From the sequence record PP886228: DNA of 64,000 bases; one strand, 5' to 3'. Source of the DNA: Escherichia phage vB_EcoM_D4. The translations under genes were made by a program, and so were the position numbers. The notes beneath the pieces were generated by a model. The model made no database searches, had not been told where the DNA came from, and saw only the letters and a list, made by a program, of their open reading frames with translations. This document shows, one piece after another, positions 11,978 to 63,017 of this stretch. Each line of letters starts with the position of its first letter. The first letter of the stretch is position 1.

Positions 11978-11987
11978 TTTCTTTACA

Positions 11988-12008
11988 GGGGCTATAAAGC
12001 CCCTTTTA
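11988..12008 (+). terminator. hairpin ggggctataaagcccc plus T-run between fibre genes
   Basis: Perfect 6-bp stem followed by TTTT; preceded by TTTACA, same architecture as the class-B modules in the 57-60 kb array. Confidence 0.4.
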
Positions 12009-18787: not shown

Positions 18788-19380
18788 CTGACTTGTCAAC
18801 AGATTTTATAGCTTATTTGGCAGATTTTTTATAAGGCTACTGCCATCCTTCCATACCTTACCACACCAAACCACACCATACCGAGCCACACCCTACCAGA
18901 CCCTACCAAACCCGACCGAGCATCACTTAAAAATCCTCTTAGAAGACTCTTAAGTGATGTAATCGAATTTTAATGTAGCTCCGATTAACTACCCATACCT
19001 CACCTTACTTAACCGTACCGCACAGAACCACACCAAACCTAACACCACTTCTCATCACCTTATTAAAAACCCTGTTTAAAGACCTTTTAAAAAGATGAGT
19101 CTCATTTTAATGTAGATGAGACTAACTACCCGCACCGAACCTCACCTGACCTGACAGCACCCGACCTCACCGCGCCATACCATACCATACTTCACTTAAA
19201 AATCCTCTTAGAAGGCTCTTAAGTGATGTAATCGAATTTTTATGTAGCTCCGATTAACTACCCGCACTTTACCAAACCTCACCCTACCCTACCAGACCTT
19301 ACCTAACCGCGCCGTACCTCATTAAAAGACCCTCTTAAAGACCTTTTAAAAAGGAGCCTCCGAAGAGGCTACCTAGTCAA
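18788..19380. repeat. four tandem-like copies of a composite module: period-5 CC tract plus conserved hairpins
   Basis: CC at exact 5-bp spacing 18851-18917 (14 units), 19262-19318, 19130-19186 and a degenerate copy 18992-19059; conserved palindromes catcacttaa...ttaagtgatg and taatcg...cgatta. Confidence 0.7.
19345..19372 (-). terminator. rho-independent terminator (minus strand)
   Basis: Minus-strand reading agcctc ttcg gaggct followed by TTTTT, directly after stop of ORF 19382-19822. Confidence 0.5.
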
Positions 19381-19381
19381 C

Positions 19382-19822
19382 TTAGAAAGGTTTTCTACGT
19401 TGCTTATTAATGTTAGCTTTCATAGCAGCTAAATGGTTTTGCTGTTCAATCAGTCGTGAGCGTTCTTGATGGCTAAGTGCCATAGTGTTCACATTCTCAA
19501 TCGCTTGAGTGGCTTGCTTTAAAGCTCGACCAATCTTGCCAGACATTTTACGTTTTGCAATAGTTGCTTGATGCTTAGGTTCAACCACACGATAACCAAC
19601 ACCCATTGAAGCAACCAGATAAATCTTCTCTTCTTTAAGAAGCTTCTCAATAAACTTCTCAAGTCGGTTTAGACGTGTAAGCGCATAAGCCTTCATTTCA
19701 TCTTCGTACTTAACAATGTCACCTTGATAAGTTGGCTTCACAATACCTAAGAATGTGTCCATCTCAGAATGTGATACAGTGTCACCGTAACTAAACTTTG
19801 CTGCTAATGCTTTTGTATTCAT
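19382..19822 (-). CDS. hypothetical protein
   Basis: 146-aa ORF flanked on both sides by repeat modules. Confidence 0.4.
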   Translation of the reverse strand: MNTKALAAKFSYGDTVSHSEMDTFLGIVKPTYQGDIVKYEDEMKAYALTRLNRLEKFIEKLLKEEKIYLVASMGVGYRVVEPKHQATIAKRKMSGKIGRALKQATQAIENVNTMALSHQERSRLIEQQNHLAAMKANINKQRRKPF

Positions 19823-19824
19823 AA

Positions 19825-20430
<606 letters not shown>

Positions 20431-20489
20431 TTAGTTGATTGTTAAGTTGTTTGTAAAGAACCCTCAACAGAAGACTCTTTAGAAACTTG

Positions 20490-20620
20490 GTAGATTTTTA
20501 ACGTGGCTACTACCATCCACCCAGACTTTACCATACCTCACCAGACCATACCTCACCTGGCCGCGCCTTGCCTTGCCAAACATCACTTAAAAACCCTTTT
20601 AAAAGACTCTTAAGTGATGC
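20490..20620. repeat. fifth copy of the period-5 CC / hairpin module
   Basis: ggtagatttttaacgtggctactacc hairpin, CC every 5 bp 20531-20577, then catcacttaa...ttaagtgatg palindrome. Confidence 0.65.
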
Positions 20621-23240: not shown

Positions 23241-23301
23241 GTGACCTCCTATACAAGATACAGTATAAGGTACTCTTCCATGAGCACCTTGTCAATATTA
23301 A

Positions 23302-41345: not shown

Positions 41346-41354
41346 AACTTGACA

Positions 41355-47491: not shown

Positions 47492-47514
47492 AGGCTCCTA
47501 CGGGAGCCTTTTTA
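47492..47514 (+). terminator. rho-independent terminator
   Basis: aggctcc tacg ggagcct then TTTTT. Confidence 0.6.
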
Positions 47515-50774: not shown

Positions 50775-50804
50775 TTGACAAGGGGCTTCAAAGCCCCTTA
50801 GAAT
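50775..50804 (+). promoter_or_regulatory. promoter with hairpin-forming spacer
   Basis: TTGACA, 18-bp spacer containing ggggcttcaaagcccc palindrome, TAGAAT. Confidence 0.45.
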
Positions 50805-56400: not shown

Positions 56401-56469
56401 GAAACTCTGTAGAATATTCACAATAGACTAAGCCTTTCTTATCTGGTAAATTTTTCAGGTAAGGAGGGC

Positions 56470-56660
56470 TTTTTCATTTCAGGATTGTGCAGGCAGAGTT
56501 CTGTAGAGAAATCTGTAGAGAAAATTTTGAACTCCAAAGAGAAAATTCATTTTCAAACTGTGCAGGTAATCTCCAAAGAGCTTTTTCATTTTCAAAACGT
56601 GCAGACCCCGCTCAGGTCGGGCAAGAAAAATCATTTTAGAATTGTGCAGGTAGGTGGGTG
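56470..56660 (+). repeat. direct repeat array of about 40-45 bp units ending in GTGCAGG
   Basis: ttcatttcaggattgtgcagg, ttcattttcaaactgtgcagg, ttcattttcaaaacgtgcaga, tcattttagaattgtgcagg, plus ctccaaagag x2 and tctgtagagaaa x2. Confidence 0.6.
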
Positions 56661-56828: not shown

Positions 56829-56857
56829 TTGACTCTCTGACTATGGTTATTTAATAT
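56829..56857 (+). promoter_or_regulatory. sigma70-type promoter heading the small-gene array
   Basis: TTGACT, 17-bp spacer, TAATAT; followed by ATCAACGGGG leader hairpin and conserved RBS. Confidence 0.55.
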
Positions 56858-56917
56858 TTGCATCAACGGGGGGCGATGACCTCCCAGCTAACTAACCTTA
56901 AACTAGGAGATTCAAAA

Positions 56918-57298
56918 ATGGCTTATCGTGCACCTAAATTCATCAACAAAGACAACTTTCGCAACGTACTGGAGAAGGCACTTGATGAAAAATTTAACGG
57001 TAAAATAATTGTTGTTCATGCGTTCAATTTCAAGTATGATATCAACGGGAATAAAATCAACCATTACACGGCAACCATGTTAGATGGTACGCTATCAAGT
57101 GAAAAAGCCGTACTGAATGCACTGGCAGGACGTGGTAAAAACCTGATAAAATGCGATAAGAGACGTTATCAGGGCGGCGCATATGGTTACGATGATGCTG
57201 TTTACCATCTTGAAAATATGGGCTATTCAGTGGAAAAAGCTGGAATATCTCAAATAATCGGCAGTGACGGCTATGTGACAATTTTCAAAATTAACTGA
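56918..57298 (+). CDS. array gene 1, hypothetical
   Basis: Start at ATG following conserved ctaggagattcaaaaATG; 126 aa. Confidence 0.45.
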   Translation: MAYRAPKFINKDNFRNVLEKALDEKFNGKIIVVHAFNFKYDINGNKINHYTATMLDGTLSSEKAVLNALAGRGKNLIKCDKRRYQGGAYGYDDAVYHLENMGYSVEKAGISQIIGSDGYVTIFKIN

Positions 57299-57306
57299 TA
57301 AAGTAC

Positions 57307-57341
57307 TTTACAAGGGGCTTATAGTTCGATAAAGTAAGCCC
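57307..57341 (+). promoter_or_regulatory. class-B promoter/hairpin module
   Basis: TTTACA, 17-bp spacer, TAAAGT; palindrome ggggctta...taagcccc spans spacer and -10. Confidence 0.45.
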
Positions 57342-57386
57342 CAGATAAAGAGCTTTACCACTAAATCCTAAATTGGAGATTCTAAA

Positions 57387-57644
57387 ATGGCTATTATCAA
57401 AAACGTTGTAATTACTGCAAAAACTCGTGATGACGCTCGCATTATGGCTAAAAAGTTATGCGGGAAAGTGATTGACAACGGAAAAAAATCTGCTGTAAGA
57501 TGGGGCGTGAAAGCTGATAAGCAACTAACCTTAAAACGTAATTCAAGCAACCTTTTTAAAGGTGTGGAAACACTTGGTAAAGTGAACGTATTCACTAAGC
57601 AAGGTTATAAAATGCACTTATCATTAACTGGTAAATTAATCTGA
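57387..57644 (+). CDS. array gene 2, small basic protein
   Basis: 85 aa after conserved RBS. Confidence 0.45.
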   Translation: MAIIKNVVITAKTRDDARIMAKKLCGKVIDNGKKSAVRWGVKADKQLTLKRNSSNLFKGVETLGKVNVFTKQGYKMHLSLTGKLI

Positions 57645-57652
57645 TAAAGTAC

Positions 57653-57687
57653 TTTACAAGGGGCTTAAAAGCTGATATCTTAAGCCC
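57653..57687 (+). promoter_or_regulatory. class-B promoter/hairpin module
   Basis: TTTACA, 17 bp, TATCTT; palindrome ggggcttaa...ttaagcccc. Confidence 0.45.
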
Positions 57688-57734
57688 CAGATAAAGAGCT
57701 TTACTACATTAACCTTAAACTAGGAGATTCAAAA

Positions 57735-58247
57735 ATGAAAACTGTAGACGCTACCTTTGAAGTTGTAAAAGAAAAATTTTCCATCATTTACGAAGCTGTT
57801 AACTGCTACGAAGCAAGCCATAGCCTTGATAATTGGAAATTTACAGATAATCATCAAGGTGGCGTGACTATTAAAAACCCCAACTATCGTTATAATGCTT
57901 TTAAATATGCAATCCCTTTACATTACAGCCTTAAACAGCTTTCGAGTGACTATGCAAAACAAGGCCGGGAAAACCCTTCAAAAGAGGCTTATATCAGCTT
58001 ACAAAGAGAACTAGAAAGGGATTTAGAGGCTTCAGCATATAATATTGCCGCGAAAGTTGTGGATGCAAACGGTAAAACGGTTTTAGAAAGTTTTTATACT
58101 GGTTACGCTTTTGATTGGGCATACAGTGACGGCGAAGATTTAGAGGATAGACTAAAAGAGGAGGTGAGCAATTCAGGCGCAGAATCTGAAGTATTAGAAC
58201 GCTTGGAAGCATTAAAAGATTCAGTGATGAATATCTTTAAGAACTAA
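57735..58247 (+). CDS. array gene 3, hypothetical
   Basis: 170 aa. Confidence 0.45.
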   Translation: MKTVDATFEVVKEKFSIIYEAVNCYEASHSLDNWKFTDNHQGGVTIKNPNYRYNAFKYAIPLHYSLKQLSSDYAKQGRENPSKEAYISLQRELERDLEASAYNIAAKVVDANGKTVLESFYTGYAFDWAYSDGEDLEDRLKEEVSNSGAESEVLERLEALKDSVMNIFKN

Positions 58248-58256
58248 ATAGATTTC

Positions 58257-58290
58257 TTTACACGGGGCTATCAAGCTGATAAGATAGCCC
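58257..58290 (+). promoter_or_regulatory. class-B promoter/hairpin module
   Basis: TTTACA, 17 bp, TAAGAT; palindrome ggggctatc...gatagcccc (compensatory arm changes). Confidence 0.45.
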
Positions 58291-58336
58291 CAGATAAAGA
58301 GCTTTATTAACTAACCTTAAACTAGGAGACTCAAAA

Positions 58337-58633
58337 ATGAAATTATCAAATAAAGTTAGGGAAAATCTAAGCAAGTTACTCAACAAAATTGATTTTATCG
58401 AGACATCAAGGAATAGTCATGATGTTATGGAATGGTTACACGGAAAAATCAAAGGCCGTCGTGTAGTGATTTGCTTATGGAATAGTTGCAGGGAATATAA
58501 AAAACCTGTATTACAAGTCAATATCTATGATGATACTTTTAAAAGCCATGTAAAGTCTAAAAGTGATTTATTAGAATCCTATGAGATAACTGTAAATGGC
58601 AAAGTATCACGTAAAGAGGAAACACCATGTTAA
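58337..58633 (+). CDS. array gene 4, hypothetical
   Basis: 98 aa. Confidence 0.45.
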   Translation: MKLSNKVRENLSKLLNKIDFIETSRNSHDVMEWLHGKIKGRRVVICLWNSCREYKKPVLQVNIYDDTFKSHVKSKSDLLESYEITVNGKVSRKEETPC

Positions 58634-58959
58634 TGACTGGTATCACTGCAATCATTGCCATTTTCGCGCTATATAAGGCATATAAAGCCTATAATCTAGC
58701 AAATAAGGCAATCACACAGCAGGTTAGCAATAGCCTTGTAGAAAGCTTTCTAGGGCGTCTCAGTGATGAGCAAATAAAGCGGTTAGAAATGAGCTTCAGA
58801 TTTCAATCGAGAACTTATCAAATCAGCGACATTTTCAAAGATGATTTTCAGCTTGTCGATGATTATAACTCCCTGATAAATGCTTTAAATATCAGTGACT
58901 TAAAAGACTATTACGCTGTAATTGTCCAAGAATTGAGCAAACGAAAAAATTTATCTTGA
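58627..58959 (+). CDS. array gene 5, membrane-anchored protein
   Basis: N-terminal TM helix GITAIIAIFALY; overlaps previous gene, no own promoter. Confidence 0.4.
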   Translation: MLMTGITAIIAIFALYKAYKAYNLANKAITQQVSNSLVESFLGRLSDEQIKRLEMSFRFQSRTYQISDIFKDDFQLVDDYNSLINALNISDLKDYYAVIVQELSKRKNLS

Positions 58960-59012
58960 TTTTGGTTTTTAAAACAAGTAAATTACTAATCAACGGGGAG
59001 GGAATGACCTTC
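58956..59012 (+). promoter_or_regulatory. class-A promoter plus leader hairpin
   Basis: TTGATT, 17 bp, TAAATT, then atcaacggggaggg aatgac cttcccc. Confidence 0.5.
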
Positions 59013-59050
59013 CCCCACTAAATAAAGTCCTTAAACTAGGAGATTCAAAA

Positions 59051-59323
59051 ATGTATACTACTAACAATGGTCGCACTTTAAACGTAACCCTGCGCCACTA
59101 TGTGAACGGTGTAATGCACTTCGAGGATTTACAAGCTGAACAACATATACTAGATTGGCAACTTGCAGGACTCCAAAAAACTGCTACCGGATACGGGAAA
59201 AAGATTCCAACTAGCTGGAAAGTATACTACGAAGGACGTTTGCGCAGAATTTATCAAGATGTATGCAGCAATAGCGCATCAAGTTACATCATGGTAAAAG
59301 GTGAAAAATTACACTTAGCATAA
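59051..59323 (+). CDS. array gene 6, hypothetical
   Basis: 90 aa. Confidence 0.45.
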   Translation: MYTTNNGRTLNVTLRHYVNGVMHFEDLQAEQHILDWQLAGLQKTATGYGKKIPTSWKVYYEGRLRRIYQDVCSNSASSYIMVKGEKLHLA

Positions 59324-59328
59324 AGTAC

Positions 59329-59363
59329 TTTACAAGGGGCTTATAGTTCGATAAAGTAAGCCC
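59329..59363 (+). promoter_or_regulatory. class-B promoter/hairpin module
   Basis: Identical to module at 57307. Confidence 0.45.
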
Positions 59364-59408
59364 CAGATAAAGAGCTTTATCACTCAATCCTAAATTGGAG
59401 ATTCTAAA

Positions 59409-59813
59409 ATGGCTATTAATAATCGTGAGTTATCAATCTTAAAAGCACGTTTGACCGTTAACCGGATTAATGTTATTACATCATCAGCACCTGATGAGAC
59501 ATTGCACAACATTATCGGGAAGATTCAAAGTGTTATCTTAGACGTTGAAAGCGTAAAAAACTCACTGGCTGACGTTGCAGCAGGTATCACGCTAGACGGT
59601 GCACAATATGAAATGGCTGACATGTTAGGCAAATCTAAGGTAATGAATAAAGAGCTTGATTTAAAAATGTTCCGCTTTGCCGTGAAAGTGTGGCTATCTG
59701 TCGAGTATGACGCAAATTTTGCAATCGCTGACTTTTTCGCAACATGGTTGCAACGTAATTTAACAAATCATGATTTTCGTGATATCTGCGACGTAATTTA
59801 CGCAGAACTTTAA
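59409..59813 (+). CDS. array gene 7, hypothetical
   Basis: 134 aa. Confidence 0.45.
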   Translation: MAINNRELSILKARLTVNRINVITSSAPDETLHNIIGKIQSVILDVESVKNSLADVAAGITLDGAQYEMADMLGKSKVMNKELDLKMFRFAVKVWLSVEYDANFAIADFFATWLQRNLTNHDFRDICDVIYAEL

Positions 59814-59824
59814 AAATTTCTCTT

Positions 59825-59881
59825 GATTTTGGTTTTTAAAACAAGTAAATTATTAATCAACGGGGAGGGAATGACCTTCCC
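59825..59881 (+). promoter_or_regulatory. class-A promoter plus leader hairpin
   Basis: Identical to module at 58956. Confidence 0.5.
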
Positions 59882-59916
59882 CACTAAGTAAAGTCCTTAA
59901 ACTAGGAGATTCAAAA

Positions 59917-60120
59917 ATGGCTATTATTAACGGCTTAAACATTGAAACTACTCACATCAAAGATATCAAAGTTGGTGATATAGTCCTTTTTCACGGCGTA
60001 GAAAAAACCGTCACTGAAAAGGATATCAAGGAGGATTCATTCATGGGCCGGACTCTCTTCGGTGATTCCTATTGCTTAGGTTACCTTGCAGTTTTAAAAG
60101 TTGTCAAAAATAACCGTTAA
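59917..60120 (+). CDS. array gene 8, hypothetical
   Basis: 67 aa. Confidence 0.4.
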   Translation: MAIINGLNIETTHIKDIKVGDIVLFHGVEKTVTEKDIKEDSFMGRTLFGDSYCLGYLAVLKVVKNNR

Positions 60121-60124
60121 AGTA

Positions 60125-60159
60125 CTTTACAAGGGGCTTATAGTTCGATAAAGTAAGCC
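60125..60159 (+). promoter_or_regulatory. class-B promoter/hairpin module
   Basis: Identical to module at 57307. Confidence 0.45.
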
Positions 60160-60206
60160 CCAGATAAAGAGCTTTACCACATTAATCCTAAACTGGAGAT
60201 TCAAAA

Positions 60207-60749
60207 ATGAAATGCTTTCACGGTACTACTCAAGAAAACTTCGTCAACCTGATTAATAACGGTGATAAACCATCAGGCGCATGGAATTGTTCGGATATGG
60301 ATGGCAATTTTTACGTTTATCCAGAAAATAAAATCTATGGCGACGATGAGGAAGAAATAATCTCTGAAGGCATTCAACAAGCTTTAGGTAATGCCACTAT
60401 AACGGCAGCTTTTCAGATGAAAACTCAAAACATTGTTATCTTGGAACTTGATATTCCAGAAGATGAGTTGAATGATGATTATTCTTGTGATAATATGTCG
60501 AGTGTGGCAAGTTTTACAGAGTATTTTGATATAAGCTGGATTAAAAAGGTTTATATCACTGAATTTAATGCTATGTTTTCACCTTTTTGTCTTCCTTCAC
60601 TGGATAACCCGAACTTAAACTATCTTGATGAGTCTCTGGAACTTCTCGCTAAAAGTGTTCAGCAATCGGACAGTATTCAGGTTTTTTGTGACATCATGGA
60701 TACACTAACAGGAAACATTGCAGAAGAGGATTTGAAGAGTTTTTTCTAA
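60207..60749 (+). CDS. array gene 9, acidic protein
   Basis: 180 aa, Asp/Glu-rich throughout. Confidence 0.45.
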   Translation: MKCFHGTTQENFVNLINNGDKPSGAWNCSDMDGNFYVYPENKIYGDDEEEIISEGIQQALGNATITAAFQMKTQNIVILELDIPEDELNDDYSCDNMSSVASFTEYFDISWIKKVYITEFNAMFSPFCLPSLDNPNLNYLDESLELLAKSVQQSDSIQVFCDIMDTLTGNIAEEDLKSFF

Positions 60750-60781: not shown

Positions 60782-60801
60782 AGCCCCTCACAGGGGCTTT
60801 T
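60782..60801 (+). terminator. terminator-like hairpin
   Basis: agcccctc acaggggct then TTT, followed by aggagg RBS. Confidence 0.4.
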
Positions 60802-60815
60802 AGGAGGCTTTAATC

Positions 60816-61049
60816 ATGCTTACAACCATTTACCTCATCCTTTCTATCTGTAATGGTCATTCGTGTGACTTTAAAGGGCTTGAAGAGTTTACAGGAAGTA
60901 AAGAAAATGCTATTCAAGTGTGCCAGATAGCAAGGCAAGACTATCCCGCCAGTGATGATATACAATGTTACTTTAAGACAGAAGATGAAGACGGTGTCTA
61001 TTTTGACAGCGTAGACGGTCAATATGAAATTATCATTGAAAAAGACTAG
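60816..61049 (+). CDS. array gene 10, hypothetical
   Basis: 77 aa, hydrophobic N-terminus. Confidence 0.4.
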   Translation: MLTTIYLILSICNGHSCDFKGLEEFTGSKENAIQVCQIARQDYPASDDIQCYFKTEDEDGVYFDSVDGQYEIIIEKD

Positions 61050-61067
61050 ACAAGCCTGATAAAAGTC

Positions 61068-61100
61068 TGTAAATTGTCAATCAACGGGAGGTAATAACCT
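61068..61100 (+). promoter_or_regulatory. class-A -10 and leader hairpin
   Basis: TAAATT then atcaacgggagg taataa cctcccc; -35 weak. Confidence 0.4.
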
Positions 61101-61138
61101 CCCCACTAAGTAAAGTCCTTAAACTAGGAGATTCAAAA

Positions 61139-61608: not shown

Positions 61609-61668
61609 CTTGCAATCAACTATCAAAACAAGTAAATTACTAATCAACGGGAGGGATAACCCCCCCCC
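61609..61668 (+). promoter_or_regulatory. class-A promoter plus leader hairpin with poly-C
   Basis: TTGCAA, 17 bp, TAAATT, atcaacgggaggg ataa cccccccc. Confidence 0.5.
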
Positions 61669-61815
61669 ACTAAATAAAGTCCTTAAACTAGGAGATTCAA
61701 AAAATGAACAAGTTCAAAGCTATCAACTTCATTCGTTCCCCCCCCACTAAATAAAGTCCTTAAACTAGGAGATTCAAAAAATGAACAAGTTCAAAGCTAT
61801 CAACTTCATTCGTTC
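61661..61815 (+). repeat. tandem duplication (78 + 77 bp) of leader-RBS-start codon segment
   Basis: Segment from poly-C tract through ...atgaacaagttcaaagctatcaacttcattcgttc occurs twice back to back; copies differ by one C. Confidence 0.8.
61704..61754 (+). pseudogene. truncated 16-codon duplicate of array gene 12 start
   Basis: MNKFKAINFIRSPPTK then stop; created by the duplication. Confidence 0.5.
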
Positions 61816-62311
61816 AAATAGTGTTATGTCAAAGCCTGTTAAAGATACCTATGAATTTCGTTGCAATGGGGTGCATTTTGCAACCATTACCAAATCAGAA
61901 AACGGAGCTTATTACATCCATCGCCGTAATGTTGCAACCGTTGTTGTCTCTCACTTTATGCAAGCTGTCGCGGAACTTCTCCCGATGTTTTTAGGGCTTT
62001 ACTTGGATGAGTGTAAAAACGTTCACAATCACGTTAAAAACCTTTTAAACAGTTATAAAATGGCTTATGAACGTTCTATCAAGTCCTTAAACAAGTTTTA
62101 CAACGCACCTAAAAATACTGTATCAATGGCCTACGATGTAAATGGTGAGGCGGTGAGTCTCTTTGAAGTGGAAGAAATCAAGCTGCATGATTTACGCCCT
62201 AGCGGTGACTCTAAGACTCTCGGTGAAGGTTTAACGTTCAATATCAAGAACTTAGAGAAAACTTTAAAAGATATTGAAAAAGATATTGACGAGACAACCA
62301 AAAATCTGTAA
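61781..62311 (+). CDS. array gene 12, hypothetical
   Basis: 176 aa. Confidence 0.45.
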   Translation: MNKFKAINFIRSNSVMSKPVKDTYEFRCNGVHFATITKSENGAYYIHRRNVATVVVSHFMQAVAELLPMFLGLYLDECKNVHNHVKNLLNSYKMAYERSIKSLNKFYNAPKNTVSMAYDVNGEAVSLFEVEEIKLHDLRPSGDSKTLGEGLTFNIKNLEKTLKDIEKDIDETTKNL

Positions 62312-62345
62312 ATTGTCAATCAACGGGAGGGAATGACCTTCCCCA
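62286..62345 (+). promoter_or_regulatory. class-A promoter plus leader hairpin
   Basis: TTGACG, 17 bp, TAAATT inside the 3' end of gene 12, then atcaacgggaggg aatgac cttcccc. Confidence 0.45.
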
Positions 62346-62376
62346 CTAAGTAAAGTCCTAAACTGGAGTTATCAAG

Positions 62377-62640
62377 ATGGAAAACGTAGAATTAACCGCA
62401 CTATTGCAGATTGCAACTGATAAAGAGGATGTAGCACTGTTCCACCGCATTGAAAGCGATTTGTTCAATGGTGAAATCATTAAAGAATCTTACGAAGTTG
62501 TCGGATTCAAAGATGGTAAATCATTTGGATTCTTTGACCTCGACAAAGGCAAAGCGGTTACAAAATATGATGTTTTATCTTGTGAGATTCTGACAAAATA
62601 CAACGAAAAAAGGCTTGCAACATACGACAACATGCAGTAA
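62377..62640 (+). CDS. array gene 13, hypothetical
   Basis: 87 aa. Confidence 0.45.
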   Translation: MENVELTALLQIATDKEDVALFHRIESDLFNGEIIKESYEVVGFKDGKSFGFFDLDKGKAVTKYDVLSCEILTKYNEKRLATYDNMQ

Positions 62641-62672
62641 ATTACTAATCAACGGGGAGGGATAACCTCCCC
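62615..62672 (+). promoter_or_regulatory. class-A promoter plus leader hairpin
   Basis: TTGCAA, 17 bp, TAAATT, atcaacggggaggg ataa cctcccc. Confidence 0.5.
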
Positions 62673-62706
62673 ACTAAGTAAAGTCCTTAAACTAGGAGAT
62701 TCAAAA

Positions 62707-62965: not shown

Positions 62966-63017
62966 GGGGCTAAATAGCCCCAGATACCTTCACAGCCCCA
63001 TTTAAGGGGCTTTTTTA
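62966..63017 (+). terminator. double hairpin terminator closing the array
   Basis: ggggctaaatagcccc then agcccca ttt aaggggct followed by TTTTTT. Confidence 0.6.

Follow-up and report, generated by a model that had tools for sequence, protein, structure and literature searches.

Intergenic promoter and stem-loop cassettes in a Felix-O1-like phage match the PeSL design of T4-like phages

The repeated intergenic element referred to here as class B is probably a composite regulatory cassette of the PeSL (promoter-early stem-loop) type, in which a promoter, a hairpin acting at the RNA level and a recombination site would be combined. It was analysed in a stretch of 64,000 nucleotides of Escherichia phage vB_EcoM_D4 (PP886228), in the following simply called the window, which is part of a Felixounavirus genome with 99.7% identity to phage vB_EcoM_I14.1. 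Sequence comparison established a promoter-type constraint, covariation of the hairpin, a G·U bias on the sense strand and deletion junctions within the cassettes.

Five class-B cassettes of about 90 bp each were located in the window (Table 1). All of them lie on the sense strand directly behind stop codons, and they occupy the intergenic space delimited upstream by the stop codon and downstream by the Shine-Dalgarno/ATG (repeat families D2, D4, D9). In 5/5 copies TTTACA is followed by one base and then by GGGGCT…AGCCCC. The overall architecture is TTTACA-N17-TAnnnT, and the 9-bp GGGGCT…AGCCCC stem extends across spacer, -10 and discriminator. A preliminary description of this DNA had named five such junctions, and all were found again, with one start moved from 60125 to 60126. 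The GGGGCT…AGCCCC pattern was observed 8 times versus 0.02 times expected from shuffles, the promoterless hairpin at 62966 being the eighth. Likewise, a -35 hexamer with an immediate GC-rich stem was observed 8 times versus 0.26 in 200 Markov simulations (maximum 2). The array between 56.8 and 63.0 kb holds five class-B and about seven class-A cassettes, forming a 6-kb tandem arrangement of single-gene modules with 13 promoters, and the genes flanking the cassettes are all annotated as hypothetical. A terminator scan found no canonical sense-strand terminators inside this array; the only two flank it, at 56430 and 62994.

Table 1. Cassettes, related hairpins and flanking terminators in the window.
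Feature	Position	Strand	Details
Canonical terminator, upstream border of early-gene array	56430..56480	+	equals t13 of Felix O1
Class-B cassette 1	57298..57386	+	TTTACA from 57307
Cassette 1, inner 9-bp stem	57314..57342	+	GGGGCTTAT/GTAAGCCCC; 11-nt loop contains most of the -10
Class-B cassette 2	57644..57734	+	-35 at 57653-57658; inner hairpin 57660-57688 (GGGGCTTAA/TTAAGCCCC)
Cassette 2, -10	57676-57681	+	TATCTT, with TG before it
Class-B cassette 3 (subclass shorter by 1 bp)	58248..58336	+	-35 at 58257-58262; inner hairpin 58264-58291 (GGGGCTATC/GATAGCCCC)
Cassette 3, -10 and outer helix	within 58248..58336	+	TAAGAT at 58280-58285; outer helix TTCTTTA/TAAAGAG
Class-B cassette 4	59320..59408	+	-35 at 59329-59334; inner hairpin 59336-59364; -10 at 59352-59357; 98% identical to cassette 1
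Class-B cassette 5	60117..60206	+	-35 at 60126-60131; inner hairpin 60133-60161; -10 at 60149-60154
rIIA-rIIB gap promoter	50775..50804	+	TTGACA, 18 nt including GGGGCTTCAAAGCCCC, TAGAAT; hairpin wholly in spacer
Tail-fibre intergenic site	11982..12007	+	TTTACA + GGGGCTATAAAGCCCC + TTTT; terminator-like
Array end	62966..63017	+	promoterless hairpin GGGGCTAAATAGCCCC, AGATA, then canonical terminator AGCCCCATTTAAGGGGCT + T6

The proposal that the element is a promoter for the downstream gene was borne out at the level of conservation, and a host-type sigma-70 early promoter serving the downstream small gene is supported by the sequences. In each of the five copies the spacer measures 17 nt and 9/12 positions agree with the consensus. 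Across 41 and 73 distinct sequences, no loop position was invariant except the T and A that stand 17 nt past TTTACA, and the last T of the -10 hexamer was conserved in at least 90%. Thus, the three key -10 bases (T-12, A-11, T-7) are kept amid an otherwise variable loop. Upstream of the promoter a conserved ATAAAGTAC is present. The -10 had been placed 17-18 bp past the -35 and inside the 3' arm of the palindrome. The distance holds, with 17 nt in class B and 18 nt at 50775, whereas the placement does not: TAAAGT, TATCTT and TAAGAT lie mostly in the loop, with merely their last 1-3 bases in the arm, and at 50775 the hairpin fills the spacer so that TAGAAT comes after it. This rIIA-rIIB promoter is kept in relatives with the loop variants TTCAAA, TTTGAA and TGAAAA. 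It was one of two further upstream sites that had been listed with the five junctions. The other one, at 11982, exists as well, but its TTTAAG is not a credible -10; with a T-run behind the stem it looks like an ordinary terminator and was rejected as a promoter.

Indirect support is available from gene expression in a relative. In Felix O1, whose genome is without an encoded RNA polymerase, ORFs 16 and 20 lie behind a 57-bp repeat discussed below, and their expression measured by RT-PCR was maximal at 5 min (Whichard 2010, PMC3185647). In the literature searched, no mapping of transcript 5' or 3' ends was found for Felix-O1-like phages, and the wV8 genome paper mentions neither promoters nor repeats. 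An upstream promoter for which the conserved TAAAGT preceding TTTACA would serve as the -10 was considered and rejected as a general model, given that its -35 would sit in unrelated coding sequence and that an extended -10 TG occurs in some copies only. Such a promoter would place the hairpin at the 5' end of the mRNA, in the style of class A.

The preliminary description also held that the arms of the palindrome change between copies and stay complementary, and that this covariation argues for a nucleic-acid structure rather than chance. Both statements agree with our results. In the window the variable parts of the arms read CTTAT/GTAAG (with one G·U), CTTAA/TTAAG and CTATC/GATAG. To describe the covariation more broadly, about 130 copies from related phages were collected, representing 54 distinct cores; the structural counts refer to the 47-nt core class only, as mixing in the 46-nt cores in MAFFT broke the pairing register. 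In this class 98.6% of the stem cells were paired, versus 91.9% in shuffles and at most 59% with the partners slid. Double compensatory changes were found: pair 3 turns from G-C to U-A in Erwinia phage phiEa104, and pair 9 varies between A-U, U-A and U·G, with C-G found in the shorter class of 46 nt. In one subclass, one base is missing from each arm. Altogether, the covariation is real and supports a selected nucleic-acid hairpin. Because the stem is kept paired and the key -10 bases are fixed in a variable loop, selection acts on both promoter and hairpin. The identity of bases in a promoter spacer matters little to sigma-70. As the 5' arm is located in this sequence-neutral spacer, the hairpin and promoter functions should be separable by mutation.

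The palindrome itself is real and is longer than had been described, as an outer helix (AAAGTACTTTA/TAAAGAGCTTT) extends the hairpin to about 60 nt. The full fold comprises a 9-bp inner stem, a 3x3 internal loop and an outer stem of 11-12 bp, in total about 20 bp, and both the -35 and the start of the transcribed sequence fall within it, the -35 region pairing with positions +4 to +15. Class-B RNA folds reached -19.9 to -20.9 kcal/mol (z = -3.4 to -5.1), RNAalifold predicted both helices independently, and 98.4% of the cells were paired in the two-helix model. Changes in the outer helix include G-C to U-A and U·G to U-A or C-G. Most of its pairs never vary and several are fixed by the search patterns, so covariation support for the outer helix is weak. 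Its strands are at the same time almost identical as direct repeats (ATAAAGnnCTTTAC), and their conservation could have a different cause.

Concerning the level at which the hairpin acts, G·U accounted for 38 of the non-Watson-Crick stem cells and A·C for 1, the other 11 being non-transition mismatches, although the G·U counts are non-independent events and the U·G at pair 5, which marks a genome clade, may have spread by gene conversion. This pattern, with G·U tolerated and A·C almost never, favours a sense-strand RNA hairpin over a protein-bound DNA palindrome. Fold energies are nearly uninformative regarding the strand: the sense fold had -21.9 versus -21.0 kcal/mol for the antisense fold (p = 0.04), and among the copies in the window the antisense structure was equally or more stable. 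No U-tract follows the class-B stems, the inner stem being followed by AGAUAAAG and the outer one by CCACUAAA, and the terminator scan did not list these hairpins. Consequently, the class-B hairpin is not a canonical intrinsic terminator, and termination by the standard intrinsic route is not predicted. A search of the 56-64 kb region against Rfam with a permissive threshold gave no family; the sole hit was a chance antisense match to mir-980 (E = 0.38).

Gene order was compared in 23 genomes: the cassette region is exactly where individual genes occur in some genomes, are missing from others or are duplicated. In genomes that lack gene 0 or gene 6, the upstream cassette is fused to the next gene, with differing crossover points, and hybrid cassettes stand at the deletion junctions (L008, L042, L023, L067, L072). 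These crossovers did not fall in the stem but 3' of the hairpin, within the leader common to the copies. Three copies in the window are 77-98% identical despite unrelated flanking genes, and a clade-wide C-to-T change occurs in all paralogues, which suggests concerted evolution. The cassettes were found at 1441 places in 288 phage records; the listed records are nearly all Ounavirinae, with 4 under other organism names. From these genome comparisons, the cassettes are recombination junctions for the gain and loss of single genes. Hairpins of unrelated sequence occupy the same promoter position at 23295(-) and 41349(+) of this genome and also in phage phi1, suggesting that the role of the hairpin is tied to transcription.

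A mechanism that fits these observations would be as follows. The promoter, in which TTTACA and TAnnnT are separated by 17 nt and preceded by an AT-rich stretch, would be read by the host RNA polymerase, with the predicted start at the A immediately past the CCCC run. This would yield an unstructured leader of about 45 nt carrying a strong Shine-Dalgarno for the small early gene. Transcribed from an upstream promoter, the same cassette would form the RNA hairpin of about 60 nt, which we infer to attenuate or end read-through transcripts and to protect their 3' ends; each single-gene module would thereby be insulated from upstream promoters. Transcript starts and ends, attenuation and stabilisation are thus predictions of this model. 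Because about 90 bp are common to the copies, the cassettes could additionally act as homologous-recombination sites at which single-gene modules are deleted, duplicated or swapped.

Other explanations for the hairpin have to be weighed against this one. The two-helix hairpin could mainly be a processing and stability signal of the T7 RNase III type and not a terminator, cut in or near the 3x3 loop, so that the upstream mRNA retains a protective 3' hairpin and the 5' end of the downstream mRNA falls near the start of the embedded promoter. Substrates of E. coli RNase III, T7 R1.1 among them, have a duplex of about 20 bp, often with an internal loop. The class-B fold has this size and shape, the missing U-tract and the G·U bias on the sense strand fit such an RNA role, and the predicted transcription start falls on the AGA that forms the 3' side of the internal loop. 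However, the outer helix has interruptions, is rich in AU and hardly varies, the same GGGGCT/AGCCCC stem is kept in the short variants at 50782 and 62966, which with 6-8 bp cannot be substrates, and no Rfam family matches; we regard this explanation as unlikely. A low probability is also given to a dual use of the hairpin, in which the DNA would be a full sigma-70 promoter and the read-through RNA a site for T7-like processing by RNase III or another nuclease and for 3' protection. If so, cleavage in the internal loop would fall at the position where the embedded promoter starts transcription. Read-through and new mRNAs would have a leader in common, and each gene in the array would be an independent monocistronic unit without a U-tract terminator. 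A further proposal, related to promoter recognition, is that a hairpin in the non-template single-stranded DNA assists the polymerase, as at the promoters of the phage N4 virion RNA polymerase. Although the strand-specific tolerance of G·T would also fit a one-strand DNA hairpin, Felix O1 encodes no RNA polymerase, and the complete sigma-70 -35, the 17-nt spacing and the -10 depend on the DNA being double-stranded upstream of -11. In an open complex the 5' arm stays unmelted. We consider such a mechanism highly improbable.

The palindromic operator that had been suggested earlier is not supported. In the form considered here, a dimeric phage or host protein would shut off the early promoters; its site would be the GGGGCT…AGCCCC arms, as in the earlier suggestion, or alternatively the pair of TAAAG-N2-CTTTA palindromes over the -35 and over +4 to +15. 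In its favour, a perfect 12-bp palindrome, TAAAGTACTTTA, covers the -35 and TAAAGAGCTTTA follows closely on the predicted start, both copies are highly conserved and identical in phiEa104, their positions suit repression, and the fold energies are almost without strand bias. Nevertheless, there are three arm sequences in one genome, with one class lacking a whole base pair, and compensatory changes preserve pairing and not sequence. The arms are 4 or 17 nt apart, which misfits a single dimer geometry, and the mismatches are strand-asymmetric. Cassettes of the 58257 type are without the left half of the upstream TAAAG-N2-CTTTA, and yet this copy still complements the downstream one through a double change from G-C to T-A. 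An operator is therefore improbable in our judgement. It also seems doubtful, and is given hardly any credence, that the hairpin is without function in gene expression, the repeat being homogenised by gene conversion and the palindrome promoting recombination or strand exchange. Deletion junctions inside the cassettes, the identity of the three window copies between unrelated genes and the C-to-T change in all paralogues speak for such a selfish or mechanistic DNA role, and the PeSL crossovers in RB49 and phi1 were mapped in or beside the stem-loop. On the other hand, unrelated hairpins are found in other promoters (23295(-), 41349(+) and phi1), all copies are on the sense strand directly behind stop codons, and the crossovers observed here fall in the shared leader, 3' of the hairpin. 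The composite cassette of promoter, RNA hairpin and recombination site thus remains our preferred reading.

The Felix-O1-like group has long served for Salmonella typing, and its members are often candidates for biocontrol or therapy. With the cassettes, these phages would have a conserved set of early promoters overlooked in genome annotation, since the cassettes are listed solely as flanks of a ‘hypothetical protein’, and the cassettes would explain the variation of accessory early genes from isolate to isolate. The Felix O1 paper states that the passage of transcription past the many terminators, and its timing, are not known (PMC3185647).

Several known systems resemble the class-B element in part. 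Intrinsic terminators that overlap the next promoter share the GC-rich hairpin right behind a stop codon, but the five class-B hairpins are without a U-tract, unlike 11982 and 41349, which have a T-run. The RNase III sites of T7 early mRNA lie in a tandem early-gene array. Sites like R1.1 are also intercistronic hairpins of about 60 nt with two stems, an internal loop and no U-tract; the T7 sites, however, are without a promoter, and in the case of the class-B hairpin the lower stem is weak and cleavage is hypothetical. The closest published sequence is the ‘57-bp direct repeat’ of Felix O1 (CTTTACATGGGGCTTAAAAGTCTGTAAAGTAAGCCCCAGATAAAGAGCTTTACCACT), located between genes 15/16 and 19/20 (Whichard 2010, PMC3185647). 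It is the same element as the class-B cassette, but was published as a direct repeat only: it is absent from the promoters and terminators of that paper, in which the hairpin and the role in shuffling are unremarked (PMC3185647).

The most complete analogy is with the PeSLs, which were described in the T4-like phages RB49/phi1, T4/PST and KVP40/nt-1, with promoter activity, terminator activity and mini-circles shown experimentally (Arbiol 2010, PMC2839356; Comeau 2014, PMC4122927). Both systems have an AT-rich stretch, a sigma-70-like -35, N17 and a -10, combined with a stem-loop of a G-run and a C-run that usually lies between -35 and -10 or overlaps the -10 and includes G·T pairs. Both are clustered in plastic regions, ahead of small genes whose function is unknown, and in both the ends of indels between close relatives fall in the cassettes. 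A phi1 PeSL that we inspected directly, TTGACAtac-AAGGGAGATTCT-cTATAATg-GGAGTCTCCCTT, has the same geometry. By this comparison, an early promoter, a stem overlapping a promoter box, intergenic conservation over about 100 bp, clustering of copies and indel ends are all found in the class-B cassettes, which as judged by analogy match the PeSL design of promoter/stem-loop elements. There are also differences. The lineage studied here is Ounavirinae, with genomes of about 88 kb and no reported T4-type transcription factors, there is no sequence resemblance to the compared phi1 cassettes, and an extra outer helix takes in the -35 together with the first bases of the transcript. The described range of PeSLs is T4-like; the present cassettes belong to a Felixounavirus. 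The PeSL design thus recurs, with unrelated sequence, in a second myovirus-type lineage, which suggests convergent evolution or an old shared logic of building plug-in single-gene early modules. As this type of design has already been described in T4-like phages, the cassettes reported here are a further example of it in a Felix-O1-like phage.

Each class-B cassette is a unit of about 90 bp with a sigma-70-like promoter inside a GGGGCT…AGCCCC hairpin, and a single base separates TTTACA from GGGGCT in all five copies. Counting confirmed that the element noted in the preliminary description recurs beyond chance: the window contains GGGGCT…AGCCCC at 8 places where 0.02 would be expected, and a -35-like hexamer directly before a GC-rich stem at 8 places, compared with 0.26 in 200 simulated sequences. 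Two further sites had been assigned to the same type. In the case of 50775, in the rIIA-rIIB gap, the element is present, but the hairpin lies wholly inside an 18-nt spacer, with TAGAAT after it. In the case of 11982, assignment as a promoter-type copy had to be dropped, as there is no usable -10 and TTTT follows the stem.

Positions of the class-B and class-A cassettes in the window
Cassette	TTTACA start	GGGGCT…AGCCCC	Extent
Class B, 1	57307	57314-57342	
Class B, 2	57653	57660-57688	
Class B, 3	58257	58264-58291	
Class B, 4	59329	59336-59364	
Class B, 5	60126	60133-60161	
Class A			56829-56919
Class A			58957-59050
Class A			59823-59916
Class A			61047-61138
Class A			61610-61705
Class A			62286-62376
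Class A			62607-62706

To place the region, database searches were carried out. Region 57200-60300 matched 253 phage records, the best being Escherichia phage vB_EcoM_I14.1 (99.7%) and the others Felix-O1-like phages of E. coli, Salmonella, Shigella and Citrobacter. All genes in the matched stretch carry the annotation hypothetical protein. The closest record, GenBank PP892526.1 (vB_EcoM_I14.1, locus L077 of our comparison), carries a Tequintavirus/Demerecviridae taxonomy line over Felix-O1-like DNA and is probably mislabelled. A 92-nt cassette query was found at 1441 places in 288 phage genomes, and nearly all of the matches listed were Ounavirinae, Erwinia phage phiEa104 included. For comparison, a scan of viral contigs used TTTACA-N24-36-CAGATAAAGAGC, whose anchors lie outside the hairpin; it yielded 75 loci with about 130 cassettes, among which 54 cores are distinct.

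The earlier observation that the arms vary yet stay complementary proved robust: over 41 equal-length cores the 9-bp inner stem was paired in 98.6% of cells, compared to 91.9% after column shuffles and at most 59% when partners were slid. Pair 3 is U-A in the Erwinia-phage copies and G-C in most sequences, pair 5 is either C-G or U·G, and pair 9 is A-U, U-A or U·G in equal-length cores and C-G in the shorter class. In the 58257 subclass one base is gone from each arm, with the 17-nt spacer kept. Regarding pair 5, T for C (U·G for C-G) marks a single clade of genomes (L004, L046, L050, L054, L065, L075) and is found there in most or all paralogous cassettes, which suggests that copies within one genome evolve in concert or undergo gene conversion.

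A promoter scan likewise bore out the -10-like hexamer, with a 17-nt spacer followed by TAAAGT, TATCTT or TAAGAT in five of five class-B copies; its proposed placement within the 3' arm was not, the hexamer lying mainly in the loop instead. In the aligned cores, the sole invariant positions of the variable loop are a T and an A 17 nt from the -35, and the T that ends the hexamer is conserved in at least 90%. These three positions are the most important in the sigma-70 -10 element. ORFs 16 and 20 of Felix O1, a phage that does not encode an RNA polymerase, lie behind the same repeat and peak 5 min after infection. Altogether, the alignments argue that promoter and hairpin signals are both under selection.

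The palindrome had also been proposed as an operator. Speaking against this, three arm sequences coexist in one genome, and the GGGGCT/AGCCCC core occurs at both 4-nt and 17-nt gaps. Departures from Watson-Crick pairing within the nine stem positions are mostly G·U (38 cells), with 11 non-transition mismatches and a single A·C, counts that are not independent events because the pair-5 U·G is a clade marker at paralogous positions; such an excess of G·U over A·C fits what is expected of a sense-strand hairpin but not of a DNA palindrome bound by a protein. A further caveat is that fold energy hardly differs between sense and antisense strands. RNA folding added an outer helix in each copy, in which AAAGTACTTTA, including the -35, pairs with TAAAGAGCTTT at +4 to +15. 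Class-B copies fold at -19.9 to -20.9 kcal/mol (z = -3.4 to -5.1), and RNAalifold on 73 distinct sequences again predicted both helices. The two-helix model is paired in 98.4%, with outer-helix changes of G-C to U-A and of U·G to U-A or C-G, weak support for the outer helix since most of its pairs are invariant and several are fixed by the search patterns. As its two strands repeat each other almost exactly in direct orientation, each forming a TAAAG-N2-CTTTA palindrome, a reading of these palindromes as DNA sites stays alive as a minor rival to the RNA hairpin. Neither the window sequence nor a terminator scan gave a U-tract after the inner or outer stem. We infer that the hairpin acts on RNA by attenuation, 3' protection or processing.

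The class-B cassettes sit in a 6-kb array of small same-strand genes (56.8-63.0 kb), where a class-B or class-A cassette precedes almost every gene and canonical sense-strand terminators occur only at the ends, 56430 and 62994. Upstream of the array gene order is stable in 23 related genomes; inside it, these genomes differ by single genes present, absent or duplicated. The hairpin type normally goes with the gene behind it. In genomes without gene 0 (L008, L042), that gene's cassette stands before gene 6, and in genomes without gene 6 (L023, L067, L072) an upstream cassette stands before gene 4, the crossover points varying within the shared leader.

Class-A cassettes read TTGAyT-N17-TAAATT, about 10 nt, then a hairpin GGGGAGGG…CCTTCCCC, which would fall at the mRNA 5' end, followed by a leader and RBS as in class B. 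Genes 11, 14, 16 and 28 of the gene-order comparison have either class in front, depending on the phage. A perfect 77-nt tandem duplication (61661-61737 and 61738-61814), spanning the class-A hairpin C-run, leader, RBS and first 33 nt of the ORF, looks like recent cassette-mediated slippage or recombination. The ORF at 60816 has no promoter cassette in front; a hairpin AGCCCCTCACAGGGGCT plus TTTT (60784-60803) adjoins its RBS AGGAGG. Elsewhere, TTGACA directly behind a stop codon is followed by sequence-unrelated hairpins at 23295 on the minus strand (AGGTGCTC…GAGTACCT) and at 41349 on the plus strand (AGGTGGTGTGAG…CTTACATCACCT, then T5). Promoters set in hairpins look like a general pattern of this genome. 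A motif of about 21 nt, TTCATTTTCAAACTGTGCAGG, is present four times at 56473-56650, at spacings of 39-45 nt, in a non-coding stretch of about 400 nt behind the 56430 terminator; the similar TTTCATTTCAGGAGAnTGT lies behind terminators at 47492, 51976 and 53769, and together they could form a phage-specific promoter or binding-site family. The region 18836-20619, which looks non-coding, holds a 79-124-nt repeat in several copies, built of six-base-phased ACCnnn units with the inverted repeat CACTTAAAAATCCTCTTAGAAGACTCTTAAGTGATG after them.

In conclusion, sequence comparison indicates that the class-B cassette is a real, selected promoter-plus-RNA-hairpin, also mediating gene shuffling. No Rfam family matched, the Felix O1 genome paper describes the element as nothing more than a 57-bp direct repeat, and our literature search found no paper connecting Felix-O1-like phages with the promoter-early stem-loops (PeSLs) of T4-like phages. 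For PeSLs, promoter plus terminator-like activity and mini-circles have been demonstrated experimentally. Class-B cassettes and PeSLs share a stem-loop that overlaps the -10 or lies between it and the -35, pairs of the G·T type, and indels located at the cassettes, and a scan of phi1 with our own script gave the same geometry. The class-B cassettes are of the PeSL kind, as a new member in a different phage lineage.
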